Positions 1-13,270 of a DNA stretch of 64,000 nt are shown piece after piece. The stretch spans positions 1-64,000 of the forward strand of contig SDNY01000003.1 of the NCBI GenBank assembly GCA_004524535.1, in the 5' to 3' direction. The notes under the pieces are model-generated. The model ran no database searches and was not told the DNA's origin. It was given only the letters and a program-made list of their open reading frames with translations. Positions within the stretch are counted from its first letter, which is position 1. Each line of letters begins with the position of its first letter. Both the position numbers and the translations under genes were made by a program. Source of the stretch: Promethearchaeota archaeon. Lineage in GTDB: Archaea; Asgardarchaeota; Lokiarchaeia; Sigyniarchaeales; SOKP01.

Positions 1-53
1 GGCATTTACAAGATAATCAGGATTCCTTAGAAGAGATATTTCTCGAAGTTTAA
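1..53 (+). CDS. 3' end of a gene running in from the window edge (…HLQDNQDSLEEIFLEV*), possibly an ABC ATPase C-terminus
   Basis: Open frame from nt 3 to TAA at 51-53; SLEEIFL resembles the C-terminal motif of DrrA-type ABC ATPases. Confidence 0.35.
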   Translation, partial: HLQDNQDSLEEIFLEV

Positions 54-219
54 AAAAAATTAGATATATCCAACTGTTAAGGTGAGAATAATGTCGGATT
101 AAAAAAAATAAAAAATTAAAGATAAAAAAATACTTCATTAGATACTGAAAAAAGAAAAAAAAAGTTTATAACTTTTTACACAAATGCCTTTTTTGGTATT
201 GCCAAAATCCCGATTTCCC

Positions 220-1801
220 TTATGGTAGAGCCAGCCTTCCAGTTATCAGGGAGACTTTCCCCGCAATGTCCAGGATGCATAATAAAATTCGGATCTACCA
301 ATTTTTTGAATGCCCTTAAGTACTTCCAATACATACCTGCTTGGTAATACGCTTGAATGTGGATAAACGGGTCTGGACGATAATTTAACCAACCCCGCTT
401 CAACGAGTATTCCGTAGTGACCGCATTAAGCTCTTGCACCTTTTCAAAGTCCTTATCTTTCGTACTTTTTCGTTCTAGCAGTTTTTTTCTGCTAAAATAT
501 CGAAACAGATGATAGGCATGCAAATAGCTTGTCTGCATCTCTCTATTGACGCAATCCACATGACTGGAGGAATTTCGTGCTAAAGAAGGGGATTCCCTTC
601 TCTTAGTATCTCGTTCCTCCATCTCACGATTGTACATCTCTGCGAATTCTGCACACTCATTCCAAGGAGTATACCACGTAATAAATAAGAAACCTGCGTC
701 CCAAAAACTATAAGGGATTGCAATCTTATTTGGCTTTTTCATTCTACTGGCTATTTGTTTAGGATGCAATTCCCAAGGTTTCATAGCAGCCCCATCTTTA
801 GCACGATTCTTTTTGAAATCTTCTGCCATCGAATTTATCCGTTTGATAACATAATCCAATTCCTCTTGAGTTTGAGCCCAGCATTCCCAATTCATCCACC
901 ATTCTGGAATTCCAATTTCTTTAAAGAATTCATATTCATGTGGAATTTTATCCTTTGGCCAGCGTGTCATAACAAGGGGATAATTACCTCCCTGAACCAT
1001 TACGGTGTTATGGCTGATTCCGAATTCTTGGTGACCCACTTCAAGAGTTAGGTTCTGCATATCATAAGGATTTGACATTCCCCACGCTACAACCGTTTTA
1101 TGTTTAGGGTGAGGATAAATTTTTACCGCAGCTTTAGTAACAACACCTAAAGCTCCTTGGCTTCCCATTAAAAATGACCACATGTCTGGACCAATACCAA
1201 ATTTGTAGAAAGGTTTTGCAAAAGGAAGCGCCCAAGAACCTGTTCTTACAACATCTCCGTTAGGAAATACGACTTCTGCACACATAAAGTTATCTCCTTG
1301 AGGCCCTACACTTGATGTATAAAGAGAGAAACCTCTATCAATAGCATCCCCCATTACAGTTGCTGCAGGAGGAGCCCCATCAGCTATAGGAGGAGCCCAA
1401 TCAGGATGATATTTCTCCATATAAGCCCATAGTCCACCGTTAGTGACACCAGGCTCAACGATTGCGTATCGATTCGCCTCATCAATTTCTATTATTCTAT
1501 CCATTCTACCTAAATCTAGTAAAACGCCTGCTGGTTTAATTGTTGGACACGCAAACCCACCAGAGAGCCCTCCAGAAACAGGACTTACTGCGATCTTTTC
1601 TGCTGAACAATAGATTAATATTTTGCGTATTTCTTCCGTGTATTTTGGTCGTACTACAATATCTGGGATTTGACTTTCTAGACCCATTACCGATTTAGCC
1701 AGATAAGAAGCAGTGATTGCTTTATTGTTGCTGGCATAATTCTTTCCCACTATCCCAATCATTGCTTCAAAATCTTTCTCATCGGGTGCCTTATACGACA
1801 T
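220..1801 (-). CDS. FAD-binding oxidoreductase (VAO/PCMH, GlcD-like), predicted spliced from 4 exons: 1801-608, 573-499, 466-268, 236-220 (494 aa)
   Basis: VAO-type motifs (DIVVRP, GVLLDLGRMDRIIEID, VEPGVT, GSQGALGVVTK). Removing three BHB inserts gives …EERD/IPPVMWIASIERCRQAICMPIICFD/STKDKDFEK… and the family-typical end FKKLVDPNFIMHPGRLALP*. The ORF track's 176-1801 call is the unspliced read-through. Confidence 0.88.
237..267 (-). other. Predicted 31-nt BHB intron (intron 3, phase 1) in FAD oxidoreductase mRNA
   Basis: Central helix CUGG/CUGG (C-G, U-G, G-U, G-C); bulges AC^A and AA^G; internal stem UUG-CGGGGA/UCCCUG(A)UAA; excision gives CCU GGA C|GG CUG GCU CUA CCA UAA = PGRLALP*. Confidence 0.8.
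467..498 (-). other. Predicted 32-nt BHB intron (intron 2, phase 0) in FAD oxidoreductase mRNA
   Basis: Central helix UUCG/CGAA perfect; bulges AU^A and AA^A; 9-bp internal stem UUUUAGCAG/CUGCUAGAA with A7 loop; carries an in-frame UAG relative to exon 2. Confidence 0.87.
574..607 (-). other. Predicted 34-nt BHB intron (intron 1, phase 0) in FAD oxidoreductase mRNA
   Basis: Exon helix UGGAGGAA/UUCCUCCA; central helix CGAG/CACG (3 of 4 pairs); bulges AU^A and AA^A; internal hairpin CUAA(G)AGAAGGG/CCCUUCUUUAG. Confidence 0.85.
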
Positions 1802-2017
1802 AATTATTCATACCTTTATTTTATTTGTTTTTTATGAATTATATTAAAATTTTTATTATTTTGGAAAATTAAATACTGAATTTTAATTTTTCTTAAAAGA
1901 ATTTCATAAAAAGAAAGACTTTTTTTTATAAAATTATTGTTCAATTCTTAAAAATAATTCACGTAAAATACAAAAATATTATTCAAAATTAGATAAATTT
2001 ATTGCTAATTTTAATTT

Positions 2018-2557
2018 TTACAAACCAGTATTCTTTAAAATTAGTCTAGTTAATGTATTGAATAAGACCTCAACATTTTCCCCCGTTTTAGAAGAGCATT
2101 CAATATAATCATAAAATTCATGGGATTTTGATATACTCATCGCTTTTTCAATAGAAATAGTTCTCATTTCCTGAAGATCTGATTTTCCTCCAACCATTAT
2201 AATTGGGATCTGTTCTCCAGCTGTACTGTTTTTAAAAATATTAAGCCATTCACCTATATTGTTCAATGTATTCTCTCGAGTGATGTCATACATGAAAATA
2301 CCACCAGATGATCCACGTAAATAAAAAGGTAACATAGGTCTAAATCGTTCCTCGCCTACTAAATCCCATATCTGCAATGAAATCTTTATATCATCTATTA
2401 CTAGGTTTTTCATATTGATATCAACGCCCATTGATTTTTCCATATCTTTTCCAATATCTTTTTGGAACTGGTCATTTAGATATCGAGAAATTAAAGCGGT
2501 TTTCCCAACTCCCGTATCTCCAAATACACAGACTTTAAAAGCATAATCCGATGAAAT
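2018..2557 (-). CDS. Rab/Ras-like small GTPase (about 179 aa, probable ATT start)
   Basis: Frame extends upstream of the ORF-track start to include FKVCVFGDTGVGKT (G1); WDLVGEE (G3), GGKSD (G4), ECSSKTG (G5); GGAGG lies 6 nt upstream of ATT at 2557. Confidence 0.9.
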   Translation of the reverse strand: MSSDYAFKVCVFGDTGVGKTALISRYLNDQFQKDIGKDMEKSMGVDINMKNLVIDDIKISLQIWDLVGEERFRPMLPFYLRGSSGGIFMYDITRENTLNNIGEWLNIFKNSTAGEQIPIIMVGGKSDLQEMRTISIEKAMSISKSHEFYDYIECSSKTGENVEVLFNTLTRLILKNTGL

Positions 2558-2715: not shown

Positions 2716-3801
2716 TTAATAAAAAATTTCCTTCGCTATCCCTTCAATTGGCGTAAAAACATTCAAATTTCTATCCCAGTCCTCAAGAATATTTGAATAT
2801 ATTGTTTCAATTTTATTAATAAATTTACTCAATAAAATTTTAAGGGATTCTAACTCTTCCTCACATATTAAAACCCCATAAATAAATCTCCCCGGTTGAA
2901 AGATTAGAATTTTTTCTTTCTTTTTAATTATAGAAATAGAATCAATGTCGCTTACTTTTTCTAACATCATTTTTATAGTTGTCAAGGTACCTGTAATGAC
3001 TGATTCATCAATTGGAGAGCCCTTTTCTCTAAAAGACTTTTTATAGATAAAAAGACCAGATTTATGCATTATAAAAACACTAATAATTTTATCTTGCCAA
3101 TTATATTCATTATAAGAAGGAATAGTAATAAAGAAAAATGAAATTAAAATTAATCCGAATAGTTGAAGGATATCTCCTATAAAACGGATACCTAATCCGA
3201 AAATTCCGACCAATAAACTCATAGTTAAAGTAGATCCTACAGCTATTAAAATAATTCCTATACAAAATTTAAGCAACTCTAATTTAAAACCTCTTAAATC
3301 TATTTTAATATAAAATTTTGAACCTAAATCAATCAGATAAATTGTAAAGAATCCTATAAAAAATATCCAAAATGAAAGTAAAATAAATAGTCTATAATAG
3401 CTATCAATGAAAAAAGCTAAGAAAGAAATTAAAATTAAAACCAAACAAATCTTAGTAAATAAGTATTTTCTAATAAAAACTTTATATTTTTCCATAATTC
3501 TTACAAAATTAATTAAAAATATCATTTGAATTAAATAGCCTAAATTTAAAATAAAATTTCTTAAATGAATACTATCAACATAATAATCCCCAACTATTAT
3601 AAAAAACCACATAATAGAATAACCAAGAAATAGCCAGATATATCCTTTTTCCTGTGAGCTTTTTAATTCACTTATTTTTTCACTTCTAATTCTCATCCAA
3701 AATATAACTGCCAGTTCCAACAAAAAAAAAACAAATAATGATTCCAATACTAATAATGGTTCTTTTAAGGATCCTTTTATAGGAAATTCATTTAAAATCA
3801 A
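2716..3801 (-). CDS. Multi-pass membrane protein with C-terminal longin/roadblock-like domain
   Basis: About 7 hydrophobic helices followed by VFIMHKSGLFIY…F..K.ETIY…W…F, a pattern typical of Asgard longin-like domains. Confidence 0.7.
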   Translation of the reverse strand: MILNEFPIKGSLKEPLLVLESLFVFFLLELAVIFWMRIRSEKISELKSSQEKGYIWLFLGYSIMWFFIIVGDYYVDSIHLRNFILNLGYLIQMIFLINFVRIMEKYKVFIRKYLFTKICLVLILISFLAFFIDSYYRLFILLSFWIFFIGFFTIYLIDLGSKFYIKIDLRGFKLELLKFCIGIILIAVGSTLTMSLLVGIFGLGIRFIGDILQLFGLILISFFFITIPSYNEYNWQDKIISVFIMHKSGLFIYKKSFREKGSPIDESVITGTLTTIKMMLEKVSDIDSISIIKKKEKILIFQPGRFIYGVLICEEELESLKILLSKFINKIETIYSNILEDWDRNLNVFTPIEGIAKEIFY

Positions 3802-3822
3802 TTTAATACCCCTTAATTTTTC

Positions 3823-12100: not shown

Positions 12101-12208
12101 ATATTTTATCCAAGGATAATTTATGACAGCTAAAATCGTAAGCTGCAAAGTGAACAATGCTGATAAAAATAATAAAATTTTTAATTTTCGTTTTGTTTTA
12201 TCTTCTAT
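9110..12208 (-). CDS. Fusion: prenyltransferase/squalene-cyclase-like repeats + TM helix + ABC ATPase (probable ATA start at 12208)
   Basis: Repeated Q..DGGF…STY.A motifs; TM near aa 670-695; GESGAGKS, LSGGQ, WMDEPTSGLD. Frame extends 17 codons upstream of the ORF-track start to an ATA preceded by AGGTGA. Confidence 0.85.
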   Translation of the reverse strand: MEDKTKRKLKILLFLSALFTLQLTILAVINYPWIKYYDDDELQDLKEDMMEFSYSHKNSDSDLFIEPEIDANFRAIDSIDFSHVYPYLTDLIFPRSISYIRDYDEFFFDYLFEKQNNNGSFSDIGGLGNMFSTYEVIEIIDLLNPTYLYSKSDEIGKILTYIQNCLLEDGWGFKYNEYAPLPDIRSTYCAIHMANIFNAKSILSNPNITNYVELSNWDDESVEQLYYRIKAYLELGQKFNQFQNKTIENYLKSLRNIDGGYSSVGISNVQSTFYALSSMYTLNIIPDKANETLQFILNCGKLDGGFGSDAYLNSSSDFISGWAAMKSIDLLRDKVNLPGVDIETYIQNYYSWLYTHQAKNGLFGHTSLEANYLGALSIYLVEPDNFTDYVDIDNMWDYVEDCYNKGDGGFSSQPSGSTSLLATYHAINLYEILLTYSDISLPDRKDTIDYLVDLQDDDGGFELGVDINELMSIFGPLSQMFTDLIETDTPTMESTYWAVASLKILEALDKLDEDNLIHWISAAQSADGGFPIVLGFHSDTISTYFGLKTLKILEIDPMSTIAAIEFLKKAQDEDGSFAPIPVISDLFEFPSTFFVSYFAAMGLYEYDFQPENIEDLIDWYEDCLSSNTGGVGDFPMFGGDLRNTPYGIMLIEELSYDQSFNPKPWNDLITSIFIIEMLILLLFGIIKIISILNVTVSKKLKERFGVGEKYNISYLEKFPAILCENVNIFAGRKLIVKSVSMKLKHGEILGVLGESGAGKSTFVKSLLGMRKYKGKIQIYGMNVKKKHKKMRPIYGYVPQDLDKIYQNFTTLQNIMYFGKQYDMTEKLVMQKAKRILTALEIEDKMHEKVKNLSGGQKRRVSIAMALIHDPIIIWMDEPTSGLDPVVRENLWLALTKINEQFNSTLIVVTHYPEESQFCHRVAIFGRMRGMIDYGRPKDLLAQLPGKGRTVDLYFNGVNENAIERLESIEGIDKALENKAGTDFSILSDLNISSLEEKIKLNFGFDSIKDIKQNDTKIEQYFRYKAMEVPKLE

Positions 12209-13270
12209 TACGCCTCACCTTCCATTATTTGTTCGCTTTCTCTTAATTTCCTTTCTTTCTCCTGTTCTTCTTGGATTCTAATCTGGAAATACCTTCTAAA
12301 AGTAGCATTATCCTTACTCATGGAAGTAACTTTTAAATTGTTTTTTATCGTATATTCAATTAATTTCTGAAGGTTTTCTTCAAAATCCTCAATAAACACT
12401 TCAATTATTTCATTTCCGACACGTATTGTTTTTTGGACGGGTGTAAAATTTTTAATAATTTTAATTTTATTCTCAGTAAGATCCTCAATAGTTAATCTAG
12501 TTAATAAGCCACCACTCGGGAGTGATGCTATGAGATTATCATTAGAATCGAATTCTAATAATTTTCCATCTCTTAAAATCGCGCTTTTATCACATATTAA
12601 GGCTGCCTCCATATCGTGTGTGATAAGAAACATTGTCGTTCCTAATTTTCGATTTAACTTTTTTAAATATGAGAGAACTTCATATCTTTTTGCTGCGTCT
12701 ACACCTTTTACCTCCAACTGCGTCTTACGCTAGTATGGATGTGGTAGGCTCGTCAAGAAAAAGAATTTTAGGCTGATGGATTAAACCAATAGCCACTGAA
12801 ACTCTCTTTTTTTCTCCTCCGCTTAATTTTTTTAATCGTTTTTTCCAAGTATCTTCCGGAATGTCAAGTATCGAAAATAGTTCTTTTGCTATTTCTTTCG
12901 CATTTTTTTTTTTCAATCCATAGGTCGATGCAAATGTTTCTACATTCGCCATAGGAGACAACTCATAGTAAAGATTGAGACCTTCAAGTTGAGGAACATA
13001 TCCAATATTGCTTAAGATTTTTGGATGATTTCTACTTTGTGCGGGATTTAAATCGGTGACTTTTACATTCCCATTCCAGTTCTTTTTATTGAGCTGGCAC
13101 GTAAGTACTCGTATAATAGTTGTTTTGCCAGCACCACTGATACCAAATAAACCGATTATTTCTCCGGATTTCACTTGAAAAGATACATCATGAACGACCT
13201 GTTTGTCTCCGAATTTAACATTTAAATTTTCGACATTTACCATTACATCCGTTATGTTTTCTGACTTCAA
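12208..13270 (-). CDS. ABC transporter ATP-binding protein, predicted spliced from exons 13270-12741 and 12706-12208 (342 aa)
   Basis: ORF track splits it in two. Walker A GISGAGKT and LSGGE lie in the 5' part; removing the 34-nt BHB insert restores FLDEPTTGVDAAKR and the downstream ITHDM H-loop. Confidence 0.92.
12707..12740 (-). other. Predicted 34-nt BHB intron (phase 2) in ABC ATPase mRNA
   Basis: Central helix UACC/GGUA perfect; bulges AC^A and AA^A; exon helix GCC/GGU; internal hairpin UCCA(U)ACU(A)GCGU-AAG-ACGC-AGU-UGGA; contains in-frame UAA. Confidence 0.92.

Follow-up and report, generated by a model that had tools for sequence, protein, structure and literature searches.

Can a protein-coding gene of an Asgard archaeon be interrupted several times and still look like one intact open reading frame (ORF)? 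This question is raised by the beginning of contig C138 (GenBank SDNY01000003.1) of a Promethearchaeota archaeon, of which we analyzed the first 64,000 nucleotides (C138:1-64000, referred to below as the window). The contig is part of a draft metagenome-assembled genome (MAG) of 3.66 Mb in 198 contigs, with 30.4% GC, rated 99% complete and 4.4% contaminated. Close to the contig end, on the minus strand, the ORF list of the window contains a frame of 541 aa (176..1801), which is also the likely product of a gene caller. An earlier note on this DNA had proposed that three introns and four exons are hidden in this open frame, and the comparison with the DNA of orthologs bore this out. In our interpretation, which we hold to be very probable, the gene encodes a 494-aa FAD-binding oxidoreductase, and its pre-mRNA contains three short introns of the archaeal bulge-helix-bulge (BHB) type.

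Three inserts in the oxidoreductase gene

The focal gene is an FAD-binding (PCMH-type) oxidoreductase; the 541-aa ORF contains an FAD_binding_4 domain identified with Pfam (PF01565, E = 2.9e-21). The homology search gave 334 homologs at E <= 0.001. Among the matches listed (the best 120 of 334), the closest proteins were named as Promethearchaeati or Lokiarchaeota MAG proteins, which makes the organism an Asgard archaeon of the Loki type, and the closest full-length homologs were 494-495 aa long. The query with a homolog of the focal protein had a match in 40 of the 40 related genomes, and the orthologs were mostly intronless. Within its own, 99%-complete genome no other full-length ortholog was found, the next best matches being at most 38% identical.

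When the window ORF was aligned with 13 homologs (alignment A1, 14 sequences), its protein departed from all 13 at two places. After the motif EMYNxxME it had 47 residues where the homologs had a nearly invariant block of 25. At the C-terminus all 13 homologs ended with HPGRLxLP, the L and P being invariant, whereas the window ORF continued for 33 residues. Both the 25-residue block of the homologs and the terminal RLALP followed by a stop codon (near 220-236) were present in the window, in the +1 frame. The DNA alignment with eight orthologs then resolved the differences into three inserts of 34, 32 and 31 nt, each of which alone shifts the frame. Since 34 + 32 = 66, which was also the sum given in the earlier note, the frame is restored after the second exon, and the unspliced ORF stays open, with 47 aberrant codons from intron 1 through exon 2 to intron 2 and 33 aberrant residues at its end.

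The four exons, all on the minus strand, measured 1194, 75, 199 and 17 nt, together a coding sequence (CDS) of 1485 nt for 494 aa and a stop codon, colinear with all orthologs. Exon 1 (608..1801) begins with the start codon at 1801..1799, includes the FAD_binding_4 domain and ends with EERD. It is followed by intron 1 (34 nt, 574..607), which has a BHB motif and is not present in the eight aligned orthologs. Exon 2 (75 nt or 25 codons, 499..573) encodes the conserved segment IPPVMW...CFD, in a frame other than that of the unspliced ORF. Intron 2 (32 nt, 467..498) also has a BHB motif and contains a TAG; on frame translation, removal of intron 1 alone led into this stop codon, as had been predicted. 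Exon 3 (199 nt, 268..466) runs from STKDKDFEKVQ to IMHPG, and intron 3 (31 nt, 237..267), with a relaxed BHB motif, separates it from exon 4 (17 nt, 220..236), which in the BHB register consists of 14 coding nucleotides completing R-L-A-L-P and the stop codon TAA. The sizes proposed earlier for exon 2, the last exon, the CDS and the protein were thus all reproduced, and they were predicted independently by the BHB criterion, with the clarification that, in the register adopted here, the stop codon is counted among the 17 nt of the last exon.

The spliced protein had 425 identities to its homolog P0001 with zero internal gaps, as compared with 401 identities and 47-48 required gap columns for the unspliced protein; in this comparison the last exon was taken 3 nt beyond the stop codon, which added two alignment columns. 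The earlier note had named homologs matching the unspliced reading as the observation that would speak against introns; the homologs matched the spliced reading instead. The claim that exon 2 is misread in the unspliced frame was likewise sustained, as the homologs carry the spliced peptide. Relative to the ortholog in the sister genome G008, 13 of the 75 nucleotides of exon 2 differed, affecting 11 codons synonymously and 0 non-synonymously in the spliced frame, but one codon synonymously and 10 non-synonymously in either of the other frames. Over CDS nt 1-1188, the DNA of exon 1 matched that of the G008 ortholog with 92.7% identity, and outside the inserts the focal gene had no stop codon or frameshift.

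A bulge-helix-bulge motif at the junctions

With the end of the upstream exon included, each of the three introns can be folded into a motif whose elements follow the order familiar from pre-tRNAs. The outer helix comes first, followed by four nucleotides at the end of the upstream exon, which form one strand of the central helix, and then by a bulge of 3 nt. The intron hairpin leads to the opposite strand of the central helix, and another bulge of 3 nt precedes the closing strand of the outer helix. Following Marck and Grosjean in 2003, both cuts in a BHB are said to fall between the second and third nucleotides of the bulges. The junctions that were set by homology coincided with this register in all three introns. 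In intron 1 the central helix CGAG with CACG has three of four pairs and one A.A mismatch, the bulges are AU/A and AA/A (the slash stands after the second nucleotide), and the outer and inner helices have 8 and at least 5 bp, respectively. Intron 2 has four of four Watson-Crick pairs in its central helix (UUCG with CGAA), the same bulges AU/A and AA/A, an outer helix of 3 bp and an inner helix of 9 bp. In intron 3 the central helix CUGG with CUGG has four pairs, two of which are G.U, the bulges are AC/A and AA/G, the outer helix consists of one contiguous base pair, and the inner hairpin consists of 3 bp, a bulge and then 6 bp. On homology alone, the junction of intron 3 can be slid over a CTGGA direct repeat; in the BHB register, this repeat is the two strands of the near-palindromic central helix.

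Folding of the introns with 15-nt flanks gave z = -4.55 for intron 1 (0 of 200 shuffles as good) and z = -3.14 for intron 2 (1 of 200), and the folds constrained to the BHB lay 1.8, 1.3 and 2.1 kcal/mol above the minimum free energy (MFE) for introns 1, 2 and 3, respectively. The introns begin with AC, AU and AU and all end with AA, and no GU..AG boundaries were present. The description of the gene as eukaryote-like, made in the earlier note, thus holds for its multi-exon layout and does not hold for its boundaries, and inserts of 31-34 nt fit the motif of the archaeal tRNA-type endonuclease. No Rfam match at E <= 1 was found in window 1-2000. We rejected spliceosomal introns on the basis of the boundaries, the length and the lack of an Rfam match in this region, small nuclear RNAs having not been searched for genome-wide. 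Self-splicing group I or group II introns were rejected as well, their ribozyme cores having hundreds of nucleotides as opposed to 31-34 nt, again with no Rfam match (window 1-2000), and so were inteins, as the inserts correspond to 10-11 codons and none of the three leaves the frame unchanged.

In the mechanism that we propose, each intron and the last nucleotides of its upstream exon would fold into a helix, a 3-nt bulge, a 4-bp helix, a second 3-nt bulge and a helix. The tRNA splicing endonuclease, presumably of the heteromeric broad-specificity type formed by two EndA paralogs, would cut each bulge between its second and third nucleotides, and RtcB would join the exons and probably circularise the introns. 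The spliced product would then be in frame and colinear with the intronless orthologs. The enzymes needed for this were found in the genome: the EndA family (PF01974) was detected twice, with 107.9 and 70.7 bits, in two 201-aa ORFs on different contigs, one on C100 at 31106 and the other on C84 at 30615, and RtcB (PF01139) once, with 561 bits. As far as can be read from their sequences, one EndA paralog is probably catalytic and the other structural. According to one study, Asgard archaea have an (alpha-beta)2 EndA with an L1 loop, linked to relaxed-motif cleavage (PMC5829648).

The same register could be examined in the tRNA genes of the organism. It cuts a 28-nt intron from its own tRNA-Pro(UGG) exactly at position 37/38, and it cuts a 27-nt intron from a gene that aragorn called tRNA-Ser(GGA) (C22 38491..38594, minus strand), leaving a GAU anticodon loop, that is, Ile; the short variable region of this tRNA fits class I and not Ser. 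In the 99%-complete genome aragorn found only 12 tRNA genes and called an intron in 8 of these. Asgard tRNA genes are heavily interrupted by BHB introns according to a recent preprint (10.64898/2026.10.13.758758), and the small number of detectable tRNA genes and the intron calls fit such interruption.

We then looked for similar inserts elsewhere by comparing 729 kb of the same-genus sister genome G008 with the whole own genome. From 1088 G008 ORFs of at least 80 aa, 677 were matched at 60% identity or more over at least 80 aa, and 66 insertion candidates were reduced by inspection of DNA alignments to 10 inserts of 29-34 nt in 7 genes. Seven of the 10 contained a stop or shifted the frame by themselves, and in all 10 a cut in the BHB register restored the sequence of the ortholog. 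The motif test (H of at least 3, h1 of at least 1, h2 of at least 3) was passed by 9 of the 10 inserts and by 4.9% of random sites (binomial P = 1.5e-11), and all four central pairs were formed in 7 of 10 inserts as compared with 16% of random sites (P = 2e-4). Candidates dropped from this census were a 1-nt homopolymer difference in a non-coding stretch (C7 near 13197) and rows such as those on C137, C65, C177 and C142, which were in-frame repeat or low-complexity indels with a weak motif or none; those on C119, C106 and C182 were left out as they lay at gene ends or beside a tRNA gene. A blastn-short search of the genome for a repeated intron family returned only self-matches and matches of 11-17 nt. 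Since no common sequence family was found in the genome, the inserts are not a repeated mobile element.

The interrupted genes were named from Pfam on their intronless G008 orthologs. An ABC-transporter ATPase gene within the window (12208..13270, minus strand) is split into two ORFs, 12725..13270 (181 aa) and 12208..12717 (169 aa), which in a split tblastn were 93% and 98% identical to one 341-aa G008 ORF with the Pfam domain ABC_tran. Its 34-nt intron (12707..12740, minus strand) sits inside the Walker-B motif LDEPT/TG, with the central helix UACC with GGUA and the bulges AC/A and AA/A, and here the unconstrained MFE fold was itself a helix, a 3-nt bulge, a short helix, a 3-nt bulge and a helix, that is, a textbook BHB. 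From the G008 comparison, CdhC has two introns of 29-30 nt (C32 3640..3669 and 3790..3818, plus strand) and CdhD one of 29-30 nt (C8 3086..3057, minus strand); each of these two genes has one locus in the genome. The other introns, also of 29-30 nt, interrupt an AMP-forming acetyl-CoA synthetase inside DTYWQ/TETGG (C52 18563..18534, minus strand), a Ras-family GTPase just upstream of the P-loop (C161 11880..11851, minus strand) and, again from the G008 comparison, an aldehyde:ferredoxin oxidoreductase (C144 21930..21959, plus strand). By DNA alignment, the C32b insert measured 29 nt and the C144 insert 30 nt.

In the reverse comparison, 549 own ORFs had a match, and 28 candidates yielded one BHB intron in G008. 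This frame-shifting 31-nt intron (G008 contig C22 near 94258, minus strand) has the central helix CAUG with CAAG and the bulges AU/A and AA/A, and lies in the ortholog of an intronless own ORF (C146:12928, plus strand). Over the same 729 kb, the tally was therefore 10 introns in the own genome and one in G008.

Probable introns in relatives and the history of the 3' end

The introns of the focal gene were compared with those of the same gene family in related genomes and in 80 metagenome loci. In G022, which belongs to another genus, the ortholog had three inserts. The first two, of 30 nt each, were in frame and without stops; the last, of 29 nt, shares its codon position with intron 3 and has a perfect CCGG/CCGG helix. 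An origin of intron 3 from the G022 lineage was considered and rejected, as exon 3 is closest to same-genus sequences. The ortholog in G006 had a 31-nt insert at FWEAG/FLF. In G016, two paralogs (L021 on C10 and L062 on C47) had a 33-nt in-frame insert with a strong BHB (outer helix 9 bp, inner helix 6 bp), placed about 4 nt downstream from where intron 2 lies in the focal gene; removal of this insert gave the consensus CFDSTK. The homolog cluster P0014 is already deposited with this G016 insert as an 11-residue insertion (xFCNxxCSERG), which is most likely a translated intron.

Among the metagenome loci, BHB inserts were found at about aa 44 (also in G004), 171, 371, 382, 403 and 456-461, so that the family has them at about nine positions: around aa 44, 171, 371, 382, 403, 425, 456-461 and 489, and a weaker one at about aa 291 (L140), where cutting brought little gain in alignment score. 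The loci with inserts were L020 (G022), L061 (G006), L024 (G004) and, from metagenomes, L101, L136, L137, L140, L146, L151 and L155. Several positions were used by more than one lineage, with different intron sequences. At about aa 44, four orthologous copies (three metagenome contigs and G004) kept the motif despite a change from A-U to G.U in the central helix, and their hairpins differed in sequence yet stayed complementary; the hairpin registers vary between the copies, and informative columns are few. In the inserts at aa 371, CGGG or CAGG stands on the exon strand and CCCA or CCUG on the intron strand. The three introns of the focal gene were not common to any of the 112 fetched loci; the G008 ortholog was intronless, and so was the closest metagenomic relative, which is 97% identical in aa over exon 1.

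The spliced CDS was 92.7% identical to G008 over nt 1-1188 but 80.5% identical over nt 1189-1485, with mismatches denser from about nt 1125. The closest metagenomic relative showed the same drop in identity at the 3' end, and there a gene for a CCG-domain Fe-S subunit (Pfam) then follows. In the own genome the Fe-S gene lies on contig C73, and directly upstream of this partner gene there is an intronless 72-codon copy of the 3' end of the oxidoreductase, 92% identical to G008 (C73 36234..36449, minus strand; locus L005 1498..1716). Contig C138 itself continues for 220 nt beyond the focal gene and ends in a repeat of 163 nt, which lies 57 nt beyond the focal stop codon; the first 163 nt of C138 and C137 are 98% identical and in the same orientation. 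In the simplest reading, a diverged version with introns took the place of the last 300-360 nt of the gene, whose original end stayed beside the partner gene. The three introns probably arrived together through the recombination that replaced the 3' segment, which would explain their clustering in the 3' quarter of the gene. As to the donor of this segment, none of the 112 fetched loci matched the introns or the downstream DNA, and the best match of the spliced segment was 82%.

Alternative explanations and comparison with known systems

If the gene were a decaying pseudogene, the inserts would be unspliced junk, for instance hairpin-forming mobile mini-elements, and its intact look would be coincidental or recent. 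The divergence of the insert-bearing 3' segment, which was probably imported (80.5% as opposed to 92.7% identity to G008), and the intronless 3'-end copy next to the Fe-S partner gene on C73 could be understood in this way. We nevertheless regard this as unlikely, given that the genome has no second full-length ortholog while all 40 relatives have a match, that the exons are clean (in exon 2, 0 non-synonymous as opposed to 11 synonymous differences), and that inserts of 29-34 nt, which share no sequence family, fit the BHB far beyond chance. Inserts of this kind also occur in CdhC, CdhD and other genes; since CdhC and CdhD are single-locus genes, inserts acting as pseudogenising lesions would have disabled the carbon monoxide dehydrogenase/acetyl-CoA synthase (CODH/ACS) complex. 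Alternatively, the 541-aa unspliced protein may be a real or an additional product, with the inserts tolerated as loops and splicing absent or partial, perhaps regulatory. The frame does stay open through 47 aberrant codons, for which a rough estimate from base composition gives a chance of about 2%, and the two in-frame, stop-free 30-nt inserts in G022 as well as the in-frame 33-nt insert of G016, deposited in P0014, point in the same direction. Such a protein would, however, lack both the invariant C-terminus and the 25 aa that hardly vary among the 13 homologs, its frame shows 10 non-synonymous to one synonymous difference against G008, and most inserts in the other genes bear stops or shift the frame, which together make this explanation very unlikely.

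A ribosome that skips the inserts, by programmed translational bypassing or by paired frameshifts, could lead to the same protein as splicing. The CTGGA repeat at intron 3 would provide a GGA take-off and a GGA landing codon giving the right protein, as would CCGGA in G022, and the inserts are short hairpins, richer in GC than the genome with its 30% GC. Introns 1 and 2, on the other hand, have no matching take-off and landing codons for any product of ortholog length, and no stop codon follows the putative take-off codon at intron 3. Moreover, bypassing predicts no complementarity between the exon end and the 3' end of the insert with symmetric 3-nt bulges, as was found in 9 of 10 inserts, and we consider it highly improbable. 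That the inserts are assembly or sequencing artefacts of the MAG is hardly credible, even though this is a draft of 198 contigs with 4.4% contamination and a contig end, formed by a repeat that is also present on C137, is 220 nt away from the gene: artefacts do not yield motif-folding inserts of 29-34 nt that restore the frame to the nucleotide, independent assemblies (G006, G016, G022 and several metagenome contigs) have comparable inserts in this gene, and the contig is colinear with G008 around it.

Several of our own observations also speak against the splicing of three BHB introns and have to be set against the evidence for it. Cleavage and ligation of these mRNAs are predicted from the DNA sequence, and the unspliced ORF stays open, which can be read as tolerance of read-through. 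Intron 1 has a mismatch in its central helix. Intron 3 is the weakest of the three, a marginal case with a relaxed motif only (an outer helix of 1 bp and two G.U pairs), and its fold was no better than that of shuffled sequences (z = -0.01, 93 of 200 shuffles as good). With lenient settings, the 1.8-kb gene region gave 337 motif matches, the mean for shuffled sequences being 325. The genome-wide BHB scan gave 323,901 motif candidates, and in combination with ORF-joining it produced 2189 joins, as compared with 2074-2187 in controls whose 3' cut had been moved by 1 or 2 nt, and hence no excess; this design was unable to find introns, as the junctions of neighbouring genes dominate. The bare BHB motif is nonspecific, and the signal is its coincidence with junctions defined by homology. 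The registers of the junctions in the census were picked knowing the motif, for which the random-site null, in which seven registers per site were allowed, compensates. Finally, the 3' segment looks recombinant, and its perfect coding state could partly reflect a recent arrival rather than long selection.

Archaeal splicing of BHB introns within coding regions has a precedent in Crenarchaeota, namely in the pre-mRNA of cbf5 (Watanabe et al. 2002; Yokobori et al. 2009, PMC2738675). The introns described here resemble that of cbf5 in being short BHB introns in an archaeal coding region, in occurring in lineages with a hetero-oligomeric endonuclease and in a gain and loss that vary by lineage. 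They differ from the single cbf5 intron in its single gene, as the focal gene has three introns with exons of 75 and 17 nt, at least 10 introns are present in 7 genes, and the host is an Asgard archaeon. The splicing of cbf5 was also proven experimentally, while here it is inferred from sequence. As of 2020, cbf5 was described, in a passage of the Haloferax study cited below, as the only archaeal mRNA with a BHB intron besides the authors' own case in a 5' untranslated region (UTR) (PMC7714728).

The Haloferax endonuclease is of the homodimeric type. In that study, the 5' UTR of HVO_1309 of Haloferax volcanii has a BHB intron, of which 46 nt are removed, the excised piece being circular (PMC7714728). 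Like our candidates, it is an mRNA substrate for the archaeal splicing endonuclease outside tRNA and rRNA; unlike them, it lies in the leader, leaves the coding frame uninterrupted and is a single euryarchaeal case. With the BHB introns of Asgard tRNAs the focal introns have in common the motif, the register of cleavage (as in the own tRNA-Pro and tRNA-Ile, with introns of 27-28 nt), the EndA alpha and beta subunits and RtcB, as well as their occurrence at many positions with little sequence likeness between introns. They differ in that the host is an mRNA, in which the exon side of the motif also codes and the register of splicing sets the reading frame. In the text of the preprint on Asgard tRNAs (10.64898/2026.10.13.758758) the word 'mRNA' is absent, and its single mention of 'protein-coding' refers to neighbouring genes.

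In eukaryotes, HAC1/XBP1 mRNA undergoes unconventional cytoplasmic splicing, in which Ire1 cuts one regulated intron. There, and as predicted here, a protein-only endonuclease cuts stem-loops of an mRNA, a tRNA ligase or RtcB joins the ends, and the loss of a short intron alters the frame and the C-terminus. A role of RtcB in XBP-1 splicing is mentioned in PMC8718801. The differences are that Ire1 recognizes another motif in one regulated intron, whereas the enzyme here would be of the EndA/Sen type and the several introns appear to be constitutive. Bypass elements, such as those of T4 gene 60 and the mitochondrial 'byps', need matched take-off and landing codons. They are similar to our inserts in being hairpins of about 30-50 nt that break the frames of conserved genes in AT-rich genomes, but matched codons are present at intron 3 only, and the BHB geometry is not a feature of bypass elements.

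In a full-text search of the literature, supplements aside, no report of BHB introns in protein-coding genes of Asgard archaea was found. What is new here is therefore not the mechanism, which is the known tRNA-type one, but several introns per gene, micro-exons and many affected genes in Asgard archaea. Beyond the focal gene, we think it likely that mRNA splicing by EndA and RtcB is a routine layer of gene expression in this Asgard lineage. It would affect about one in 100 genes, including core Wood-Ljungdahl enzymes, with 1-3 introns of 29-34 nt and exons down to 17 nt. The introns would turn over fast between sister genomes, occupy about nine positions in one gene and travel with recombining segments, and databases would hold translated introns and falsely split genes.

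Protein-only splicing of coding regions in archaea has so far rested essentially on cbf5. If our reading is true, a tolerance for split protein-coding genes and micro-exons, by means of the tRNA splicing machinery, already exists in those prokaryotes that are most closely related to eukaryotes. Two questions would become testable, namely how ribosomes and splicing coexist without a nucleus and how BHB introns reach new sites. There are also consequences for annotation: the focal gene would enter databases as an incorrect protein of 541 aa and the ABC ATPase as two fragments, and a pseudogene flag would be put on CdhC, CdhD and other genes. The neighbour of the focal gene in the window is a 141-aa ORF (2018..2443, minus strand), which was noted, by eye only, as a candidate for a small GTPase.

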